Virus record (IMG/VR): IMGVR_UViG_2706796752_000001
Coordinates: 32,001 to 96,000 of that record
DNA length: 64,000 nucleotides
Direction: 5' to 3' (one strand)
DNA from: a virus
Taxonomy: Duplodnaviria > Caudoviricetes
Each line of letters begins with the position of its first letter. The first letter of the stretch is position 1. The notes below the pieces were generated by a model. The model searched no databases. It saw only the letters and a program-made list of their open reading frames with translations, and was not told where the DNA came from. Below are positions 1,485 to 61,482 of the stretch, in pieces. The position numbers and the translations under genes were made by a program.

Positions 1485-3176
1485 ATGAATCCGTTTAAGT
1501 GGTTTAGAAAGAAGAAGCCAACCACATTGTCAAAGATGGATATTTTAAATCCGGAAGACATGGGTGAATTCTCAGTCATGATTAACGGACTAGAGCAAGA
1601 AGTGGTATCTAAATCTGGAGACAAAAAAGATATAGGTAGAACGAAAGGTTATGAAGAGCCCTACCTAACATCGATGACTGTCAACCCAGATTATAAAGAA
1701 GCACCGTCAAGAGATGGAGATTACCGATTACTAGATACACTTAAGTTATGGTCCAGAAAGAATATTATCGTCAACGCTATCATAAACACACGTGTCAATC
1801 AGGTATCGATGTTCTGTACCCCATCGCGATACTCAACTAAAGGGGTAGGATACGAGGTTCGCCTTAAGGACCCGTTAAAGAACCCTAGCAAGGCGGAGGA
1901 AGCCAAGATTAAAGAGATTGAGACTTTCCTAGAGTACACGGGCGTAGACAACGGAGACTTGACGAGAGACACGTTTAGAACGTTCATTAAGAAGATAACA
2001 CGTGACAGATTAATTTACGATAAGGTTAACTTCGAATTAATCTACAACAAAGAAAAGCAGTTAGCTAGATTTGCTGCACGTGATGCTTCTACCATTTATA
2101 CCGCTGTAGATTCACAGGGTAAGTTACCTAAAGGTAAAGATGCTTACAAATACGTACAGATTATCGATAGCCAAAAGGTAGCATCATTCAAGTCTAACGA
2201 GATGGCTTGGGAGGTGCACAACCCGAGGACCGACATCACAGTTGGTAGATACGGTTATAGCGAGCTAGAGATATGCTTACAGCATCTTCAGTATCATGAG
2301 AATACCGAACTATTTAATGCTCGTTACTTCGCGCAGGGCGGGACGACAAGGGGCTTATTACACATTAAAACAGGACAAGAACAATCACGTTCTGCATTAC
2401 AGTCATTCCGTCGTGAATGGCAATCAATGTTCTCTGGTGTAAATGGAGCTTGGAAGATTCCAGTTGTATCTGCTGAAGATGTAAACTTCATCAATATGAC
2501 TCAGTCGTCTAAAGATATGGAATTCGAAAGATGGTTAAACTACCTTATCAACGTTATGTGTAGTATTTTCGCAATCGACCCATCTGAGATTAACTTCCCT
2601 AACCGAGGCGGAGCTACAGGGTCATCAGGTAGCTCATTAAACGAAACATCTGCTAAGGAGAAGAATCGTATCTCTCGTGACAAAGGTTTAGAGCCATTGC
2701 TTAAATTTATCGAGGATACAATCAACAAATACATCATCAAACAATTCGGTGATGAGTACCTATTCCAATTCGTAGGCGGAGACGCTGCTACAGAGAAAGA
2801 AGCGCTAGAGTTACTAGAACTTCGTACTCAAGTTGGGCTAACGTTCAACGAGGCAAGAGCTATCTTAGGATACGGCGCAATCGAAGGCGGAGATGTAATC
2901 AACAGTCCATACCATGTTCAGTCTAAAGGTCAAATCATGCAAGAGAAAATGATTGCCCAGCAGCAAGCAGCTGAAGGTCAGTCAGATGACAAACAGATGT
3001 CCGAGATGAAGCAGCAAGGTATGAATGGTAAGTCTGATGCCGTTAACGGTAATGCAGGAAAACCTAAGCAAGATGGACAAGTGAAGGGCGTTAAATCCGG
3101 AACTGCCATGAAGCAGGGTGGTAAGAGTGAGAATAAGGCAACAGTAAATGAAGATGCAAAGCGAGGTAAGAAATAA
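1485..3176 (+). CDS. Portal protein
   Basis: 563 aa; portal motifs (YGYSELE, NARYFAQGG, WQSMFSGVNGAWKIP, KDMEFERW, DPSEINF); precedes protease and capsid. Confidence 0.95.
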   Translation: MNPFKWFRKKKPTTLSKMDILNPEDMGEFSVMINGLEQEVVSKSGDKKDIGRTKGYEEPYLTSMTVNPDYKEAPSRDGDYRLLDTLKLWSRKNIIVNAIINTRVNQVSMFCTPSRYSTKGVGYEVRLKDPLKNPSKAEEAKIKEIETFLEYTGVDNGDLTRDTFRTFIKKITRDRLIYDKVNFELIYNKEKQLARFAARDASTIYTAVDSQGKLPKGKDAYKYVQIIDSQKVASFKSNEMAWEVHNPRTDITVGRYGYSELEICLQHLQYHENTELFNARYFAQGGTTRGLLHIKTGQEQSRSALQSFRREWQSMFSGVNGAWKIPVVSAEDVNFINMTQSSKDMEFERWLNYLINVMCSIFAIDPSEINFPNRGGATGSSGSSLNETSAKEKNRISRDKGLEPLLKFIEDTINKYIIKQFGDEYLFQFVGGDAATEKEALELLELRTQVGLTFNEARAILGYGAIEGGDVINSPYHVQSKGQIMQEKMIAQQQAAEGQSDDKQMSEMKQQGMNGKSDAVNGNAGKPKQDGQVKGVKSGTAMKQGGKSENKATVNEDAKRGKK

Positions 3177-5115: not shown

Positions 5116-5125
5116 TGTTATATTA
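5116..5125 (+). promoter_or_regulatory. Late-type promoter TGTTATATTA for the capsid gene (second copy TGATATACTA at 5176-5185)
   Basis: Motif match upstream of the major capsid gene. Confidence 0.7.
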
Positions 5126-5260
5126 AGTACAGAAGAGGTTGTAGCGGACTCCTCCTAAGCTACTTCCTCTTGTTATGATATACTAGTTTTATAGTGAGGA
5201 AACAGAATTTTTAGAATATTGTGAATAAAACATAAACCACTTTGAAAGGAAGATAAAATA

Positions 5261-6694
5261 ATGACTGAAGTAAAAGTAGAAAAAGAAAAAGAGGTTAAGT
5301 TGCCTGAGCAAGCTGAAGCCCAGTTAGCTGAGATTGTAAGCAAATCGTTTACAACTGGTACAGGTATCACGCCAGATACGCAACAAAATGCAGCTGCGTT
5401 ACGCCGTGAGTTACTAGAAGACCAAGTGAAAATGCTTGCTTTCGACAATGCAGACTTCACGATTTATCCAATGATTAATAAGCAACAAGTAAATTCAACT
5501 GTTGCGAAGTATGCAGTATTTAATCAACATGGTCGAACAGGTCATTCTCGTTTCGTGCGTGAGGTAGGGGTAGCTAGTATCAACGACCCTAACATCCGCC
5601 AAAAGACAGTACAGATGAAGTTCTTATCTGACACTAAACAACAATCTATCGCAGCAGGTCTTGTGAACAACATCGCTGACCCAATGTCAATCTTGACAGA
5701 AGATGCAATCTCTGTTATTGCAAAATCTATCGAGTGGGGTATTTTTTACGGAGATGCAGCATTATCAGCTGAAGATGATAGTCAAGCAGGTTTAGAGTTT
5801 GATGGATTAGGTAAATTAATTGACAAGGATACAAACGTAATTGACTTAGCTGGTAAACGTTTAACTGAAGAAGTTTTAAACAAAGCAGCAGTTATCGTTG
5901 GTAAAGGTTACGGTCGCGCTACAGATGCGTTTATGCCGATTGGGGTGCAAGCGGACTTCACTAACAATCTATTAGACCGTCAACGTGTAATTCAACCGTC
6001 ACAAGCTGGTGGATTCTCTACTGGATTCTCTATCAATCAATTCTTATCTACACGTGGTGCTATCACACTTCACGGTTCAACAATCATGGAGAATGATAAT
6101 ATCTTAGTAGAAGGTCGTATGATTGAGCCTAACGCTCCTCAAGCTCCAGCATCAGTTGTAGCTACAGTTGCAAAAGGTAAAGGTAAATTCCGTCCGGAAG
6201 ATATCAAAGAGCAAGCTTACAAAGTTGTAGTTCACTCTGACGATGCAGAATCATTACCATCTCAAGAAGTTATTGCTACAGTTGCAGAAGCTGCGAGCGA
6301 AGTTAAGTTAACTGTTAAACTAGCTAACTTATACCAAGCATCACCACAGTTCATCTCTGTATACCGTCGTGGTAACGAAACAGGTCACTACTTCTTAATC
6401 GCTCGTTTCCCAGTTTCAAAGCGTAACGACCAAGATGAGTTAGTAGTAATCGACCGAAATGAAACAATCCCAGAAACAACTGATGTGTTTGTTGGTGAGA
6501 TGACTCCACAAGTTCTTAGCTTACTAGAGTTACTTCCAATGATGAAGTTACCACTTGCTCAAATGAATGCTACAACTACGTTCACAGTCCTTTGGTACGG
6601 CGCTTTAGCTCTTTACGCTCCGAAGAAATGGGTTCGTATCCGTAACGTTCAATACATCCCAGCTTTAGCTGCTGATGTAACTTACCGTCCTTAA
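5261..6694 (+). CDS. Major capsid protein precursor
   Basis: 477 aa; KSFTTG N-terminus, AKSIEWGIFYGD and LWYGALALYAPKKW motifs as in Herelleviridae (K/A511/Twort) capsids. Confidence 0.97.
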   Translation: MTEVKVEKEKEVKLPEQAEAQLAEIVSKSFTTGTGITPDTQQNAAALRRELLEDQVKMLAFDNADFTIYPMINKQQVNSTVAKYAVFNQHGRTGHSRFVREVGVASINDPNIRQKTVQMKFLSDTKQQSIAAGLVNNIADPMSILTEDAISVIAKSIEWGIFYGDAALSAEDDSQAGLEFDGLGKLIDKDTNVIDLAGKRLTEEVLNKAAVIVGKGYGRATDAFMPIGVQADFTNNLLDRQRVIQPSQAGGFSTGFSINQFLSTRGAITLHGSTIMENDNILVEGRMIEPNAPQAPASVVATVAKGKGKFRPEDIKEQAYKVVVHSDDAESLPSQEVIATVAEAASEVKLTVKLANLYQASPQFISVYRRGNETGHYFLIARFPVSKRNDQDELVVIDRNETIPETTDVFVGEMTPQVLSLLELLPMMKLPLAQMNATTTFTVLWYGALALYAPKKWVRIRNVQYIPALAADVTYRP

Positions 6695-6900
6695 TCGGAT
6701 GGTAAGCTCCCGCTTGGGGGAGTAGAAAGATACCACGAGGCGTGTGAGTTAACGGTTACGTTGCTCACCTAAATAATGATAAGGCATAGTGCCAATTTCT
6801 AAATAACTAGTAAACCTACGAGTGTGTTATAGTACACCAAACGAAACCGGAACTAGTTATCTAAGAAACTAATTGAATAGTTCGATGACAATTGAATAAC
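6681..6900 (+). ncRNA. Putative structured non-coding RNA / 3' UTR element after the capsid gene
   Basis: Five or more adjacent hairpins plus a long 6796-6868 stem in a 270-nt gap without a credible ORF; G-U pairs favour the + strand. Confidence 0.55.
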
Positions 6901-6908
6901 AACTAAAT

Positions 6909-6935
6909 AGGAGCAGATAAATTTCTGCTCCTTTT
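6909..6935 (+). terminator. Capsid transcript terminator
   Basis: AGGAGCAGA / TCTGCTCCT stem plus TTTT. Confidence 0.85.
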
Positions 6936-6963
6936 ATTATATCTAAACTAGGAGGAAATGTAA

Positions 6964-7188
6964 ATGTTAAAAAGTATTTTTTATGGTGATTACACAACGG
7001 CAACTATTTTCGGTGATGTCTACTTCGATAAGGATGGTATCGCACAAGGCTTGACATTAGAACAGGAACGTGCATTATCCGCCGTAGCAGATTACAAGTT
7101 TACAGAACCAGAACCTGAGAAGCCTAAGGCTCCAGCTAAACCGAAGACACCACCTAAAGCTAAAGCTGCACCTAAAGAAGAAAAATAA
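6964..7188 (+). CDS. Small virion-associated protein with P/K/A-rich tail
   Basis: SD AGGAGG; position directly after capsid. Confidence 0.75.
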   Translation: MLKSIFYGDYTTATIFGDVYFDKDGIAQGLTLEQERALSAVADYKFTEPEPEKPKAPAKPKTPPKAKAAPKEEK

Positions 7189-7200
7189 GGAGGTATTGAT

Positions 7201-8082
7201 ATGGGAGCTCACTTAGTAGAACCAGAAAGCGGCAGCCCGTATCAACATAATAATAAACAACGAATCGAGCTAGCTGATGTAGATAAACTGACGCTAGCTG
7301 ATTTTGGGTTTACAGTTGATGCGGTTAAACTAAACCACTTTGGTATCGACGTAAAGAATCCAACTACAGGAGAATTCCTTCCGGATGCATTCTATGAAGC
7401 TAAGATTGAACAAGGTATTGCACAAGCAGAGAAAATGCTTGACATCGTTATCATCCCTCGACACGTCGAAGAGCACTCCGATTTCTATCGTAATGACTTT
7501 GACTCATATAACTTTATACGAACGCGTAAGCGCCCTGTAATCCAGTTAGAGAAGATGAGAATGGAGTATGGTGGAGGAACAGTATTCTCTTATCCTCCTA
7601 AATGGTGGAGAGTGTATACATTAGAGGGTCATGTAGAGCTAATGCCTACGATGTTACTATCCTCACAGGGACAGAATTTAAGTCTATCAAACATCTACTC
7701 AGGTTATCCTATGATATCCGGTATACCTTCTCTAGTAGGCGGAGAGTACGCACCACAGCTATTCCACGTAGAATATGTTGCTGGACTGTTACCACCTAAA
7801 CGGAGAGGCGTGACAGAGGACTGGGAACTGTCTCCTGACTTATGGACATTAGTTATTAAACTAGCATTAAAAGAAATCCTGCAACAATGGGGAAGACTTA
7901 TCGTTGGTGCTGGTATCGCTGAGATGACAACACAAATAGATGGTGTATTCCAGAAGATTAATACAACTCAGTCTGCTATGTACGGTGGAGCGTACGCAGA
8001 TATATCTCAGTTAGATAGAGATATAGAGGACCTATACAAAGGGTTAAAATCTCACTACGGAGTAAACTTAGGAATTATCTAA
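7201..8082 (+). CDS. Head-tail adaptor / neck protein
   Basis: 293 aa; synteny; GAGIA and TTQSAMYGGA motifs. Confidence 0.7.
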   Translation: MGAHLVEPESGSPYQHNNKQRIELADVDKLTLADFGFTVDAVKLNHFGIDVKNPTTGEFLPDAFYEAKIEQGIAQAEKMLDIVIIPRHVEEHSDFYRNDFDSYNFIRTRKRPVIQLEKMRMEYGGGTVFSYPPKWWRVYTLEGHVELMPTMLLSSQGQNLSLSNIYSGYPMISGIPSLVGGEYAPQLFHVEYVAGLLPPKRRGVTEDWELSPDLWTLVIKLALKEILQQWGRLIVGAGIAEMTTQIDGVFQKINTTQSAMYGGAYADISQLDRDIEDLYKGLKSHYGVNLGII

Positions 8083-18700: not shown

Positions 18701-19543
18701 AAAGCCAATGAATCTAAGAAAGGAGATAATCTATCTTTCGAACGTGAAAACATTTCTATGTACGAACGTGTATTAACACGAGCTGAGCAGATTCTTGCAC
18801 AGGCTAGAGCACAGAATGGTATCATGGGAGTAGGTGGAGGTGGAACTGCTGGAGCTGGTGGTGGTATAAATGGCTTCACAGGTGGTGGTAAGTTACAATT
18901 CCTAGCAGATGGTCAGAAGTGGTCTTCAAGCAACCTTCAGCAGCATGATTTAGGATTCACAGACCAAAACCTGACAGCAGAAGACCTTGACAAATGGATT
19001 GACTCGAAAGCCCCTCAAGGCTCTATGATGAGAGGTATGGGTGCTACGTTCCTTAAAGCAGGACAAGAGTACGGTTTAGACCCTCGTTATCTAGTTGCTC
19101 ACGCAGCTGAAGAGTCTGGATGGGGTACTTCTAAGATTGCTAGAGATAAAGGTAACTTCTTTGGAATTGGCGCGTTCGATGACAGTCCGTACTCAAGTGC
19201 CTATGAATTCAAAGACGGAACAGGTTCGGCTGCCGAAAAAGGAATCATGGGTGGGGCTAAGTGGATATCTGAGAAGTACTATGGTAAAGGTAATACCACG
19301 TTAGATAAGATGAAAGCAGCAGGTTACGCAACGAATGCTACGTGGGCTCCAAACATTGCTTCTATCATGGCTGGTGCTCCTAAGGGAAGCGGTAGCGGTA
19401 ATGTCCAAGCCACAATTAACGTCAACGTAAGAGGAGATGACAAGGTATCCGATAAGCTGAAGAATAGCGCGGATATGAAGAAGGCAGGAAAAGATATTGG
19501 AAGCTTGTTAGGATTCTATTCTAGGGAGATGACAATAGCTTAA
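15731..19543 (+). CDS. Tape measure protein with C-terminal glucosaminidase (GH73-like) domain
   Basis: 1270 aa, helical with G/A-rich hydrophobic segment; C-terminal AHAAEESGWG, NFFGIGAFD, YATNATW. Confidence 0.92.
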   Translation: MAKREKYIFDVEAEVGKAAKSIKSLEAELSKLQKLNKDIDATGGDRTEKEMLATLKAAKEVNAEYQKMQRILKDLSKHSSKVSRKDFNDSKVINNAKTSVQGGKVTDSFGQMLKNMERQMNSMNKQFDNHRKAMVDRGQQYTENLKTNRKDSQGNSKPSMMGRNKSTGEDMEKAVDKFLSGQNEATNGLNQALMQLKEISKLNRRSESLSRRASASGYMSFQQYSNFTGDRRTVQQTYGGLKTDNRAKVLELSGQATGISKELDRLNSKKGLTAREGEERKKLMRQLEGIDAELTARKKLNNSLDEATANMNKFNQSLLDANVTVKPERGTMRGMMYERAPAIALAIGGAITATVGKLYSDGGNHSKAMRPDEAYVGQQTGAVGANWRPNRTATMRSGLGNHLGFTGQEMMEFQSNYLTANGYHGAEDMKAATTGQATFARATGLGADDVKDFFNTAYRSGGVDGNQTKQFQNAFLGAMKQSGAVGREKDQLKALNGILTSMSQNRTVTNQEMMRTMGLQSTISATGVSSLQGSKGGALMEQLDTGIREGFNDPQMRVLFGQGTKYQGLKGRAQLRKQMEKGISDPDNLTTLIDAAKAQAPSGDKEEQAEILQTLASRMGVNMSSQQAGGLLGMDPKSLTKDNIDKVMKEGLKEGSIESAKRDKAYSDSKASIDNSSEAATAKQSTELNDMGSKLREANAALGGLPAPMYAAIAAVVAFTAAVAGSAIMFKGASLLKGGVAGKFGKKGGRGGGGGGGGGGGVGAAATGAGAAGAAGAAGAAGEIGAGVAGAAGGTAAGAAAGGSKLAGVGKGVMKGAGKLMLPLGILMGANEIMQAPEEQKGAAVGSAVGGLGGGVLGGAAAGAAVGSFLGPIGTAVGGIGGAIAGGWAGSGIGETIGGWFDSKPKEDPTASAAALAAAAGTTGAVGASSTASLQSQMSQGVSASNASQINSMASALGISSGALASQLGISSGQENQIQTMTDKENTNTKKANESKKGDNLSFERENISMYERVLTRAEQILAQARAQNGIMGVGGGGTAGAGGGINGFTGGGKLQFLADGQKWSSSNLQQHDLGFTDQNLTAEDLDKWIDSKAPQGSMMRGMGATFLKAGQEYGLDPRYLVAHAAEESGWGTSKIARDKGNFFGIGAFDDSPYSSAYEFKDGTGSAAEKGIMGGAKWISEKYYGKGNTTLDKMKAAGYATNATWAPNIASIMAGAPKGSGSGNVQATINVNVRGDDKVSDKLKNSADMKKAGKDIGSLLGFYSREMTIA

Positions 19544-31689: not shown

Positions 31690-32466
31690 ATGACTATTGC
31701 TAATGGTAAATCTAGACTACAGCGTATCGCCTTTGAAGTGGGCGGTCGAACATTCCGATTCGCACTAAACCCTGAGTCGATGGAAGAAGCGAGACCACAT
31801 AGAACGACAGCATTAAAAACAAAGAGTCGTATTATTGTAGAGGACTTCCAAGATGACATCCCTACATTAACAATCTCCGGTACGACAGGATTCAATCCTA
31901 CAGGTCAAGCATCCGATAGAGGTGTTAACAAGATTAAAGAGATGAAGAATTTCATTGCAGACTTCTCAGCTACTGGAGGTAATGGTAAGCTATCAAAAAA
32001 CGAATTCTTCTTTCATAACTTTACGAATGATGAAAGTCACGTCGTAACACTAGCACCGGAAGGTATTACCATTTCACAGGATGCACAGTCACCATTACTA
32101 TATCGATATAGTATGAAGTTCATAATCATACGAGCATCATCAGAACCAGCAGATGCTGATGTAGTAAATCCAGAGATTGGTAATAAATTCCCAACACTAC
32201 CCGACTCCGGTAACTATCGACCATCTCCTAACTACCCCAAACTACCTACACCTTTCCCTAATGGAGAGACAAGTGTCCCTATCCCAACTAGACCGTCTGG
32301 TGATGGCTCTGTAGGAGATGACGTATATAATAAAGGTAACGGAGGAAGTTACAATCCAAAGAACGATAATGCAACAGTAAACCCGCAGATATCAAACGGT
32401 GGTGCGTATAACTATGGTACGACTGGACTTGGATACAGTATAGGGTATTACGGAAGGTGGAGTTAA
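31690..32466 (+). CDS. Baseplate / tube-initiator-type protein
   Basis: FALNPES and ISGTTGF motifs; first gene of the baseplate operon. Confidence 0.65.
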   Translation: MTIANGKSRLQRIAFEVGGRTFRFALNPESMEEARPHRTTALKTKSRIIVEDFQDDIPTLTISGTTGFNPTGQASDRGVNKIKEMKNFIADFSATGGNGKLSKNEFFFHNFTNDESHVVTLAPEGITISQDAQSPLLYRYSMKFIIIRASSEPADADVVNPEIGNKFPTLPDSGNYRPSPNYPKLPTPFPNGETSVPIPTRPSGDGSVGDDVYNKGNGGSYNPKNDNATVNPQISNGGAYNYGTTGLGYSIGYYGRWS

Positions 32467-61123: not shown

Positions 61124-61414
61124 ATGTATAAATCTATTATTGAGGTTATCAATATTTATATCCAACGAGGGTATAAGCTAGAGTATACGAATGGTTCTAC
61201 GTTTGCGGTATTTAATATGAATGGTTTCTATCACTTAGCGGTAGACATCTTGAATGGCGAACCAATGTATTATTACTCAGCAACAGTTTATATTACAGAA
61301 GAGAACCCAGAAGGAAAACGAATGTTTATGTGTAAAGACTTCGAGGATATGGACCGACAGATTCGTCCTTTTGAGGATATAACTTCTTTAGAAAAAGATG
61401 TTGACAAAGATTAA
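61124..61414 (+). CDS. Hypothetical protein inserted between RNR subunit genes
   Basis: ATG after AAGGGAG; preceded by hairpin 61069-61093 and CGCTATATTA. Confidence 0.7.
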   Translation: MYKSIIEVINIYIQRGYKLEYTNGSTFAVFNMNGFYHLAVDILNGEPMYYYSATVYITEENPEGKRMFMCKDFEDMDRQIRPFEDITSLEKDVDKD

Positions 61415-61429
61415 TAGATAGTGTATAGT
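61401..61429 (+). promoter_or_regulatory. Sigma-A-type promoter
   Basis: TTGACA-17-TATAGT. Confidence 0.75.
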
Positions 61430-61464
61430 AGGTATTGTAGCGAAAGCTATGGTACCTATTTTTT
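61429..61464 (+). terminator. Terminator overlapping the predicted transcription start
   Basis: TAGGTATTGTAGC-GAAA-GCTATGGTACCTA plus T6. Confidence 0.75.
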
Positions 61465-61482
61465 ATTTAAGGAGGAGAATAC

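Follow-up and report, generated by a model that had tools for sequence, protein, structure and literature searches.

The long gap behind the major capsid gene of this phage raised the question of whether it encodes one large structured RNA. A preliminary description of the window, which is the whole stretch of 64,000 nucleotides that was analyzed (positions 32,001 to 96,000 of IMG/VR record IMGVR_UViG_2706796752_000001), had proposed such an RNA of about 250 nt at positions 6695 to 6935. Comparison of the capsid region revealed 99.9% DNA identity to the Bacillus phages MrBubbles and Phireball, and by its sequence the source phage is a Bacillus thuringiensis myophage of the genus Wphvirus (Herelleviridae, Bastillevirinae). 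The locus comprises the following features.

5116..5125, plus strand: late promoter box TGTTATATTA of the capsid gene, an exact match to the Kayvirus late -10 consensus (PMC7698491)
5261..6694, plus strand: major capsid gene, 477 aa (phrog_752, E 1.8e-215)
6695..6963: gap between the capsid gene and the DUF7349 gene, 269 nt
6964..7188, plus strand: DUF7349 gene, 74 aa, with a Lys/Pro/Ala-rich tail (phrog_1205, PF24040)

Only one gap in 50 kb of the Phireball annotation is larger, and gaps within late operons there are mostly 10 to 20 nt; no plus-strand ORF of at least 20 aa lies in the gap behind the capsid gene. Its unusual length and its noncoding character were thus confirmed, and its placement in the sense 3' UTR of the late capsid gene was borne out by gene positions and orientation. 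The DUF7349 gene, to which phrog_1205 and Pfam assign no function, is the first gene past the capsid terminator. It was located directly past this terminator in every related locus in which it was detected by tblastn, and the same synteny was present in the four annotated Wphvirus records examined.

On the other side of the capsid gene, the 5' UTR (window positions 5132 to 5171) opens with a stem-loop whose loop, CUCCUCCUA, is anti-Shine-Dalgarno-like. Nearly all loci of Bacillus Herelleviridae have a TTCCTCCTCCTA loop in a covarying stem of the capsid leader, a possible 5' stabilizer or translational element. Pairing between the capsid 5' UTR and 3' UTR was rejected because the duplex energy equaled the shuffle mean.

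All helices named in the preliminary description were found in the sequence, and the three longest were recovered independently by an inverted-repeat search.

6707-6711 with 6718-6722, plus strand: hp1, CTCCC/GGGAG
6734-6737 with 6741-6744, plus strand: hp2, CACG/CGTG, weak (the MFE fold keeps 2 bp)
6744-6768, plus strand: hp3, GTGAG-T-TAACG/CGTTG-CTCAC
6783-6793, plus strand: hp4, GGCA/TGCC
6796-6811 with 6852-6868, plus strand: long stem (12 nt, 92%, in the inverted-repeat search)
6824-6827 with 6834-6837, plus strand: GTGT/ACAC inside the long stem

The minimum free energy of positions 6695 to 6935 was -66.5 kcal/mol, compared with -48.0 +/- 4.8 kcal/mol for dinucleotide shuffles (n = 200). 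None of the 200 shuffles folded as well (z = -3.89), and the z value was still -3.4 without the terminator, so the proposed folding beyond shuffled controls held. The minus strand of the same region folded equally well (z = -4.4), and short gaps of the same genome that contain only a terminator also gave z values of -3 to -4. A further gap that folds better than shuffles (z = -3.35) lies upstream of gp83 in Phireball (L074, positions 2294 to 3109, corresponding to window positions of about -630 to 185). This gap of 816 nt has no annotated gene and contains late-box-like sites.

Known RNA families were searched in window positions 6000 to 7600 with Rfam covariance models, which include self-cleaving ribozymes, phi29 pRNA, 6S, tRNA-like, and EAR families. 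With E values of up to 10, no match reached the gathering score. The best E value was 0.31, and the top hits scored 17 to 25 bits, compared with thresholds of 45 to 90, and fitted only the terminator. Eight related loci likewise gave no hits at the gathering score, and ARAGORN detected no tRNA or tmRNA in the gap. The region thus matches no known RNA family; the preliminary description had matched it by eye to no tRNA, group I intron, hammerhead, HDV-like, or pistol core.

The capsid loci of relatives (68 from IMG/VR plus GenBank phages) were then compared. Across the subfamily, the gap ranged from 83 to 300 nt and measured about 90 nt in most phages. The Wphvirus flanks were 96 to 99.9% identical over 2.8 kb, yet the gap lengths differed: 269 nt in the window phage, Phireball, Darren, MrBubbles, and Belinda; 235 nt in OmnioDeoPrimus; 215 nt in Zuko, DIGNKC, and about eight others; 183 to 186 nt in Nigalana, JackRabbit, Megatron, Eyuki, and others and also in W.Ph. 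and the L018 contig; about 250 nt in Crookii; and 300 nt in SalinJah and BPS13. The gap and its capsid-side border can be divided into the following parts.

6681..6706, plus strand: M0, 10-bp hairpin CTTACCGTCC / GGATGGTAAG, found by the inverted-repeat search
6707..6795, plus strand: M1, variable hairpin cassettes (hp1 to hp4)
6796..6868, plus strand: M2, closing stem (6796-6811 with 6852-6868) and inner hairpin (6822-6842)
6825..6834, plus strand: late-promoter-like box TGTTATAGTA, 9/10 to the consensus, with a predicted start at about 6841
6871..6908, plus strand: M3, pre-terminator box, AATTGAATA twice and then AACTAAATAG into the stem
6909..6940, plus strand: intrinsic terminator, stem AGGAGCAGA / TCTGCTCCT, loop TAAATT, tail TTTTATTAT

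Five parts persisted, namely, M0, M2, M3, the terminator, and the decamer at 6825. M1 was missing, or different small hairpins stood in its place, in DIGNKC/Zuko, OmnioDeoPrimus, Nigalana/JackRabbit, W.Ph., and L018; hp1 was retained in SalinJah, and extra optional hairpin cassettes were present in SalinJah and Crookii. Phages whose DNA is near-identical outside M1 lack it or carry a replacement, so M1 is dispensable. The extra modules are likewise not essential, because most of the subfamily has a gap of about 90 nt without additional hairpins. A single functional RNA of about 250 nt is contradicted by the turnover of positions 6707 to 6795, which make up nearly half of it. Likewise, a packaging RNA, a ribozyme, or a sponge acting as one unit of about 250 nt was not supported, and only sub-elements were retained. 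The larger claim of a new 250-nt RNA machine does not hold.

A blastn-short search of the gap against the 158-kb genome revealed no second copy of any part; the matches were at most 12 nt if exact, with one of 16 nt containing a mismatch, and all had E values of at least 0.5, i.e., chance level. In IMG/VR, hp3 was found only at the same locus (in Belinda), and no copy was present in 185,579 prokaryote genomes. Because these searches gave no copies beyond the capsid locus, the cassettes do not behave as a dispersed or host-derived repeat, and a mobile hairpin cassette of the REP, MITE, or PeSL type was rejected on the same grounds.

Analysis of the retained parts revealed that in M0 the final capsid codons pair with GGATGGTAAG, so that the capsid stop codon TAA lies in the loop. 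M0 was kept in all Wphvirus variants and was absent in other genera; one G.U pair on its plus strand is a G-C pair in W.Ph. M2 spans roughly 70 nt. Its closing stem consists of 9 + 5 bp with an internal loop, and it contains the A-rich single-stranded stretch CAAACGAAACC. This architecture was predicted in all eight genus variants folded. With the terminator removed, the plus strands of the eight variants gave z values of -3.1 to -5.0 against shuffles, and for five variants the minus strand was clearly weaker. Two other genera have long gaps of unrelated sequence, for which the plus-strand z values were -3.1 to -4.5 and a closing stem around an inner hairpin was again predicted.

Ten double-sided compensatory changes were identified in six helices. 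The M2 closing stem accounted for two between the window and Nigalana, which carries an additional new 9-bp outer stem in M2, and for three between W.Ph. and SalinJah. Two further changes were found between loci L016 and L063, two between L007 and L006, and one in hp1 between the window and SalinJah (C-G to U-A). The changes were counted by hand from the sequences; eight of the ten were checked by program, and the two between L007 and L006, where the hairpin is bulged, were read by eye. The helices also contained G.U pairs, which work solely on the plus strand. In the alignment of clade-2 M2 sequences, taken from a small comparison set of six variant types in two clades, 94.7% of cells were paired, compared with 23 to 45% when the partners were slid by 1 to 3 columns, and three pairs had changed on both sides. 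In a search with a covariance model of clade-2 M2, the clade-1 element escaped detection under default filters and was a weak top hit at 6804-6859 with filters off (7.8 bits, E 0.14 in 401 nt). The two clades are barely alignable, and their homology is only weak. MAFFT alignments of M2 across clades and of the box plus terminator placed the stem arms out of register, and RNAalifold returned no pairs on the latter alignment. For this reason, M2 pairs were counted on the clade-2 alignment and by hand. Retention of the whole element of about 250 nt with covariation, as expected of the proposed RNA, was not observed in the relatives. Paired changes are not strict proof of selection on RNA, because one-step DNA template switching in palindromes is possible. 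As judged from the aligned variants, the M2 closing stem is maintained within the genus by compensatory changes.

M3 was compared by anchoring the capsid-downstream sequences on the terminator stem. A core of T[GTA]AATA was located 13 to 22 nt upstream of this stem in 43 of 44 distinct contexts, which span Bacillus, Staphylococcus, and Listeria phages. The box mostly reads AAYTGAATA, followed by 5 to 9 nt and then by AATAG into the stem, with AAT/AG as the junction. It corresponds to TTGAATAACAACTAAATAG in the window and to CTGAATAACAACAAAATAG in a Staphylococcus phage contig, and it holds in the Twort-like, Kayvirus, and P100-like phages retrieved with the Twort capsid. Within the genus, M3 is nearly invariant despite the upstream indels. 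The stems behind the box differ (AGGAGCAGA, GGGACAGA, GAGGACAG, GTGGGTAAAC, CATGGG), and none of the other terminators of the same genome carries it. By this comparison, the box directly before the terminator, which the preliminary description does not mention, is the most conserved part of the gap. Because its sequence is kept across host genera, its conservation suggests a sequence-specific reader. The box also closes all three reading frames with stop codons and places an A-rich tract ahead of the stem. Late promoters and other noncoding RNAs are covered in the transcriptome papers on Kayvirus (PMC7698491), phage K, and Listeria CKA15, which contain no description of the capsid 3' UTR or the box.

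Several other readings of box-like sequences were discarded. A sigma-A or SPO1-middle-type promoter was rejected because no acceptable -10 element or spacing was seen by eye across the aligned relatives. The capsid 5' UTR contains TGAATA in just 13 of 54 loci, mostly from Wphvirus, so its presence there does not characterize the family. The combination of ATGACAAT...TTAATAGGG plus hairpin at window position 19529 is formed by the final coding stretch of a 1270-aa ORF and its tandem stops and was considered a coincidence. A dense array of (A)ATA[GT]TCTGACAAT(T) on both strands, which resembles an iteron or operator array, is present near the left end of the phage's own genome (positions of about 360 to 1420, outside the window at 32001-96000) and holds 13 of the 20 genomic CTGACAAT sites. 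The gap contains a loose look-alike, TGAATAGTTCGATGACAATTG (6874-6894), which may be due to chance.

The terminator hairpin (6909-6932) has a 9-bp stem with five G-C pairs and a 6-nt loop and is followed by TTTTATTAT. It therefore has the G+C-rich hairpin and the U tract on the transcribed strand that define an intrinsic terminator. A terminator was present in every relative, and the arms of the stem variants remained paired (GGGACAGA/TCTGTCCC, GAGGACAG/CTGTCCTC, CATGGG/CCCATG). Its 5' arm AAATAGGAGCAGAT (6905-6918) nearly repeats the ribosome-binding region of the next gene, AACTAGGAGGAAAT (6946-6959), and CUCCU of the 3' arm could pair with the Shine-Dalgarno sequence of that gene if the 5' arm were removed; this near repeat is not conserved outside the genus. 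On the minus strand, a near-consensus sigma-A-type promoter (6964..6936; TTTACA, 17 nt, TATAAT; 11/12) is directed into the terminator and the capsid 3' UTR and could drive an antisense RNA. Its spacing is not kept in W.Ph., and it may be a chance occurrence in A/T-rich DNA. At window positions 61397 to 61470 and 82501 to 82570, TTGACA, 17 nt, and a -10-like hexamer lead directly into a strong hairpin and a T run. A start inside the 5' arm of the hairpin would let the promoter escape a terminator meant for upstream transcripts; alternatively, very short RNAs may be encoded there.

The decamer inside M2 was evaluated against the known late promoters. TGTTATATTA is the experimentally determined late -10 box of Kayvirus vB_SauM-515A1, which has no -35 element and a start 6 nt downstream (PMC7698491). 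Of 54 distinct Herelleviridae loci, almost all have TGTTATATTA or TGCTATATTA at a distance of 68 to 157 nt upstream of the capsid start codon ATG. Across 50 kb of the late region, the consensus TG[TC]TATATTA was strongly confined to intergenic DNA. Nine of the 12 boxes with no or one mismatch (two of two exact boxes and seven of ten one-mismatch boxes) were intergenic, compared with an intergenic share of 5.5% of the 50 kb. No late-promoter box was found between 6940 and 14579. Further boxes of the form TG[TC]TATA[TCA]TA are located on the plus strand at window positions 137, 3304, 14579, 19581, 31657, and 46178. They precede gp83, the prohead protease, the tail chaperone, the tail lysin, gp110, and Phireball gene 119, which is annotated as "HTH binding domain protein," and several of them sit directly behind a terminator. 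The suggestion that the decamer is late-promoter-like was upheld to the extent that, with nine of ten positions matching and given the intergenic enrichment of such boxes, it is a good candidate; the box is missing from the W.Ph., Crookii, and L018 equivalents.

The gap is no ordinary spacer. It is folded beyond chance and modular, and it ends in a good intrinsic terminator. We consider it probable that it represents a modular, structured 3' UTR of the capsid mRNA, which would stabilize the transcript and attenuate transcription. Its modules most plausibly fold independently of one another and are lined up between the stop codon of the capsid gene and an ancient unit made of the box and the terminator. 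The region is thus known in kind, as a structured 3' UTR with a terminator, and the family-wide pre-terminator box is the feature worth attention. A polymerase starting at the late promoter at 5116 would transcribe the capsid gene and mostly halt at the terminator (6909-6940), and this stop would set a high ratio of capsid to downstream expression. Since no late box lies between 6940 and 14579, the head-completion, sheath, and tube genes would rely on read-through. By analogy with known stabilizers, the M0, M1, and M2 stem-loops would keep the long untranslated tail folded and block 3'-to-5' exonucleases one stem after another as well as attack by endonucleases, which would leave the capsid ORF intact in decay intermediates. 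Such analogy is also what suggests a stabilizer role for the upstream hairpins.

The site behind the stop codon appears to accept insertions, and hairpin cassettes would therefore come and go by recombination, with only well-folded inserts persisting. When a payload was carried immediately behind cps by an engineered phage K (K::nluc CPS), its expression was the highest among the sites compared (PMC12538581), which fits a permissive, highly transcribed insertion site. M3 may be read by a sequence-specific protein or nuclease that tunes termination, processing, or stability. The 9/10 late box in M2 may also fire and yield an RNA of about 100 nt that ends at the same terminator, and the modular 3' UTR does not otherwise depend on it.

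A separate late small RNA is a somewhat unlikely alternative. TGTTATAGTA would fire with a start near 6841, and an RNA of about 100 nt, ending at the capsid terminator, would act in trans. Its predicted form is a mostly single-stranded A/U-rich body with the conserved box and the terminator hairpin; apart from that hairpin it would be open, and the only terminator past 6841 is the one at 6909-6940. Besides the 9/10 match of TGTTATAGTA and the intergenic enrichment of near-consensus boxes (9/12 versus 5.5%), this reading is favored by Zuko, which has a 10/10 box at the equivalent place, and by a related element in a sister genus with TGTTATAGAA in the same hairpin. Position 8 of the box also varies (C, A) in other intergenic boxes and in the L016 and L063 capsid promoters, but G at this position is absent from about 50 capsid promoters. 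The W.Ph., Crookii, and L018 equivalents lack the box, and L063 has lost it and kept the hairpin. A hairpin could mimic the box, whose sequence is palindromic in part (TGT-TATA-ACA in SalinJah). In Kayvirus, expression did not increase at consensus sites beside a terminator (PMC7698491). M3 could serve as a seed, but its presence throughout the family includes loci in which the promoter is absent. A search of the genome for trans targets revealed only complementary matches of at most 12 nt, at chance level. In four soil metatranscriptome runs, contigs of relatives with 88 to 95% likeness (Nigalana-type and B4-type gaps) were found. One of them spans the capsid gene, the gap, and the downstream gene, with DNA carry-over possible; a 4.3-kb contig starts exactly at the equivalent of the predicted start, and the contigs of two other runs start elsewhere in the gap. 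These contigs are uninformative on RNA ends or expression, because contigs of about 200 kb imply possible DNA carry-over and assembly breakpoints.

The gap may instead act in cis, with M2 and/or the box binding a phage or host factor (candidates are the DUF7349 protein, RNase III, RNase Y, and NusA/NusG) that sets the share of polymerases passing the terminator or cuts the read-through RNA; in the latter case, the downstream message would begin with a protective hairpin. We regard such control of read-through or processing as unlikely. It is favored by a box that is conserved in sequence throughout the family and fixed in its distance from a stem of variable sequence, by the conserved synteny with the DUF7349 gene, by sheath and tube genes that have no late box between 6940 and 14579, and by the compensatory changes in the M2 closing stem. 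Precedents for the cutting version are the action of Bs-RNase III on SP82 early mRNA and the RNase III sites of T7. Against it, the stem of M2 is short for an RNase III substrate, the element itself is genus specific whereas the need for read-through would be family-wide, and the stop codons and the A-rich tract could partly explain the conservation of the box. A joint view, in which the box is a cis-regulatory RNA signal that sets the capsid-to-tail ratio and a late small RNA of about 100 nt is additionally released in Phireball-type phages, is likewise doubtful. In Wphvirus the box adjoins the covarying M2, and its readers would be a phage factor, perhaps the DUF7349 protein, or a host ribonuclease or termination factor. 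That the gap has no RNA function, being a recombination-prone spacer whose palindromes have their role in the DNA or persist as neutral remnants, appears very unlikely. The high turnover of cassettes between near-identical phages, the equally good folding of the window minus strand, and the length of just about 90 nt in most relatives are consistent with it. However, all variants fold far better than shuffles regardless of their sequence, the plus strand is favored in most variants, the helices carry G.U pairs and compensatory changes, and M0, M2, and M3 are kept across indels.

In engineered Herelleviridae (phage K and A511-type phages), the standard insertion site for payloads or reporters lies directly behind the capsid gene. 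Placing a payload without disturbing capsid or tail expression would be aided by three points on this site: the natural swapping of folded cassettes at the exact insertion site, the short family-wide motif between the insertion site and the terminator, and the apparent dependence of the downstream sheath and tube genes on read-through. The pre-terminator box is a compact candidate signal for termination, processing, or stability in phages of three host genera.

Several known systems resemble parts of the locus. The PeSL elements, reportedly described by Arbiol et al. in 2010 as mobile promoter/stem-loop cassettes of T4-type phages, are likewise small noncoding hairpin cassettes that differ between close phages and mark modular exchange. 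Unlike them, the cassettes of the gap have no copies elsewhere in the genome or the collections searched and give no sign of mobility. Bs-RNase III processes hairpins of SP82 early mRNA, and T7 uses RNase III sites similarly. Like these sites, the gap has intercistronic stem-loops with internal loops in a phage operon, the family is related to SP82/SPO1, and after a cut the upstream RNA would by analogy end in a protective hairpin; the stems of the gap are shorter (9 + 5 bp), SP82 being compared by architecture. As in the Herelleviridae late promoters, the same decamer stands before the capsid gene (5116) and other late genes, but the copy in the gap matches at 9/10 positions, lies in a hairpin upstream of a terminator, and has G at position 8. 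DapZ and MicL are enterobacterial type I 3'-UTR small RNAs with their own promoter. The gap shares with them a promoter-like box within the 3' region of the parent gene, a parental terminator that the predicted RNA would use, and a predicted product of about 100 nt whose body is open and which carries a terminator hairpin. Unlike in DapZ and MicL, the promoter in the gap is a 9/10 match that is absent from half of the genus, and the conserved part also occurs elsewhere without a promoter. The leaky terminator T-phi of T7 lies behind capsid gene 10, and the cry gene of Bacillus thuringiensis, the host species of the present phage, is said to carry a "positive retroregulator," a 3' stem-loop that stabilizes mRNA (reportedly described by Wong and Chang in 1986). 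As in these two systems, stable hairpins and an intrinsic terminator are located directly behind the most abundantly expressed gene, and protection from 3' exonucleases together with a step-down of downstream transcription would be expected by analogy. In contrast to both, the gap has four to seven hairpins over about 200 nt, which are swapped between close relatives, and a sequence-conserved pre-terminator box.
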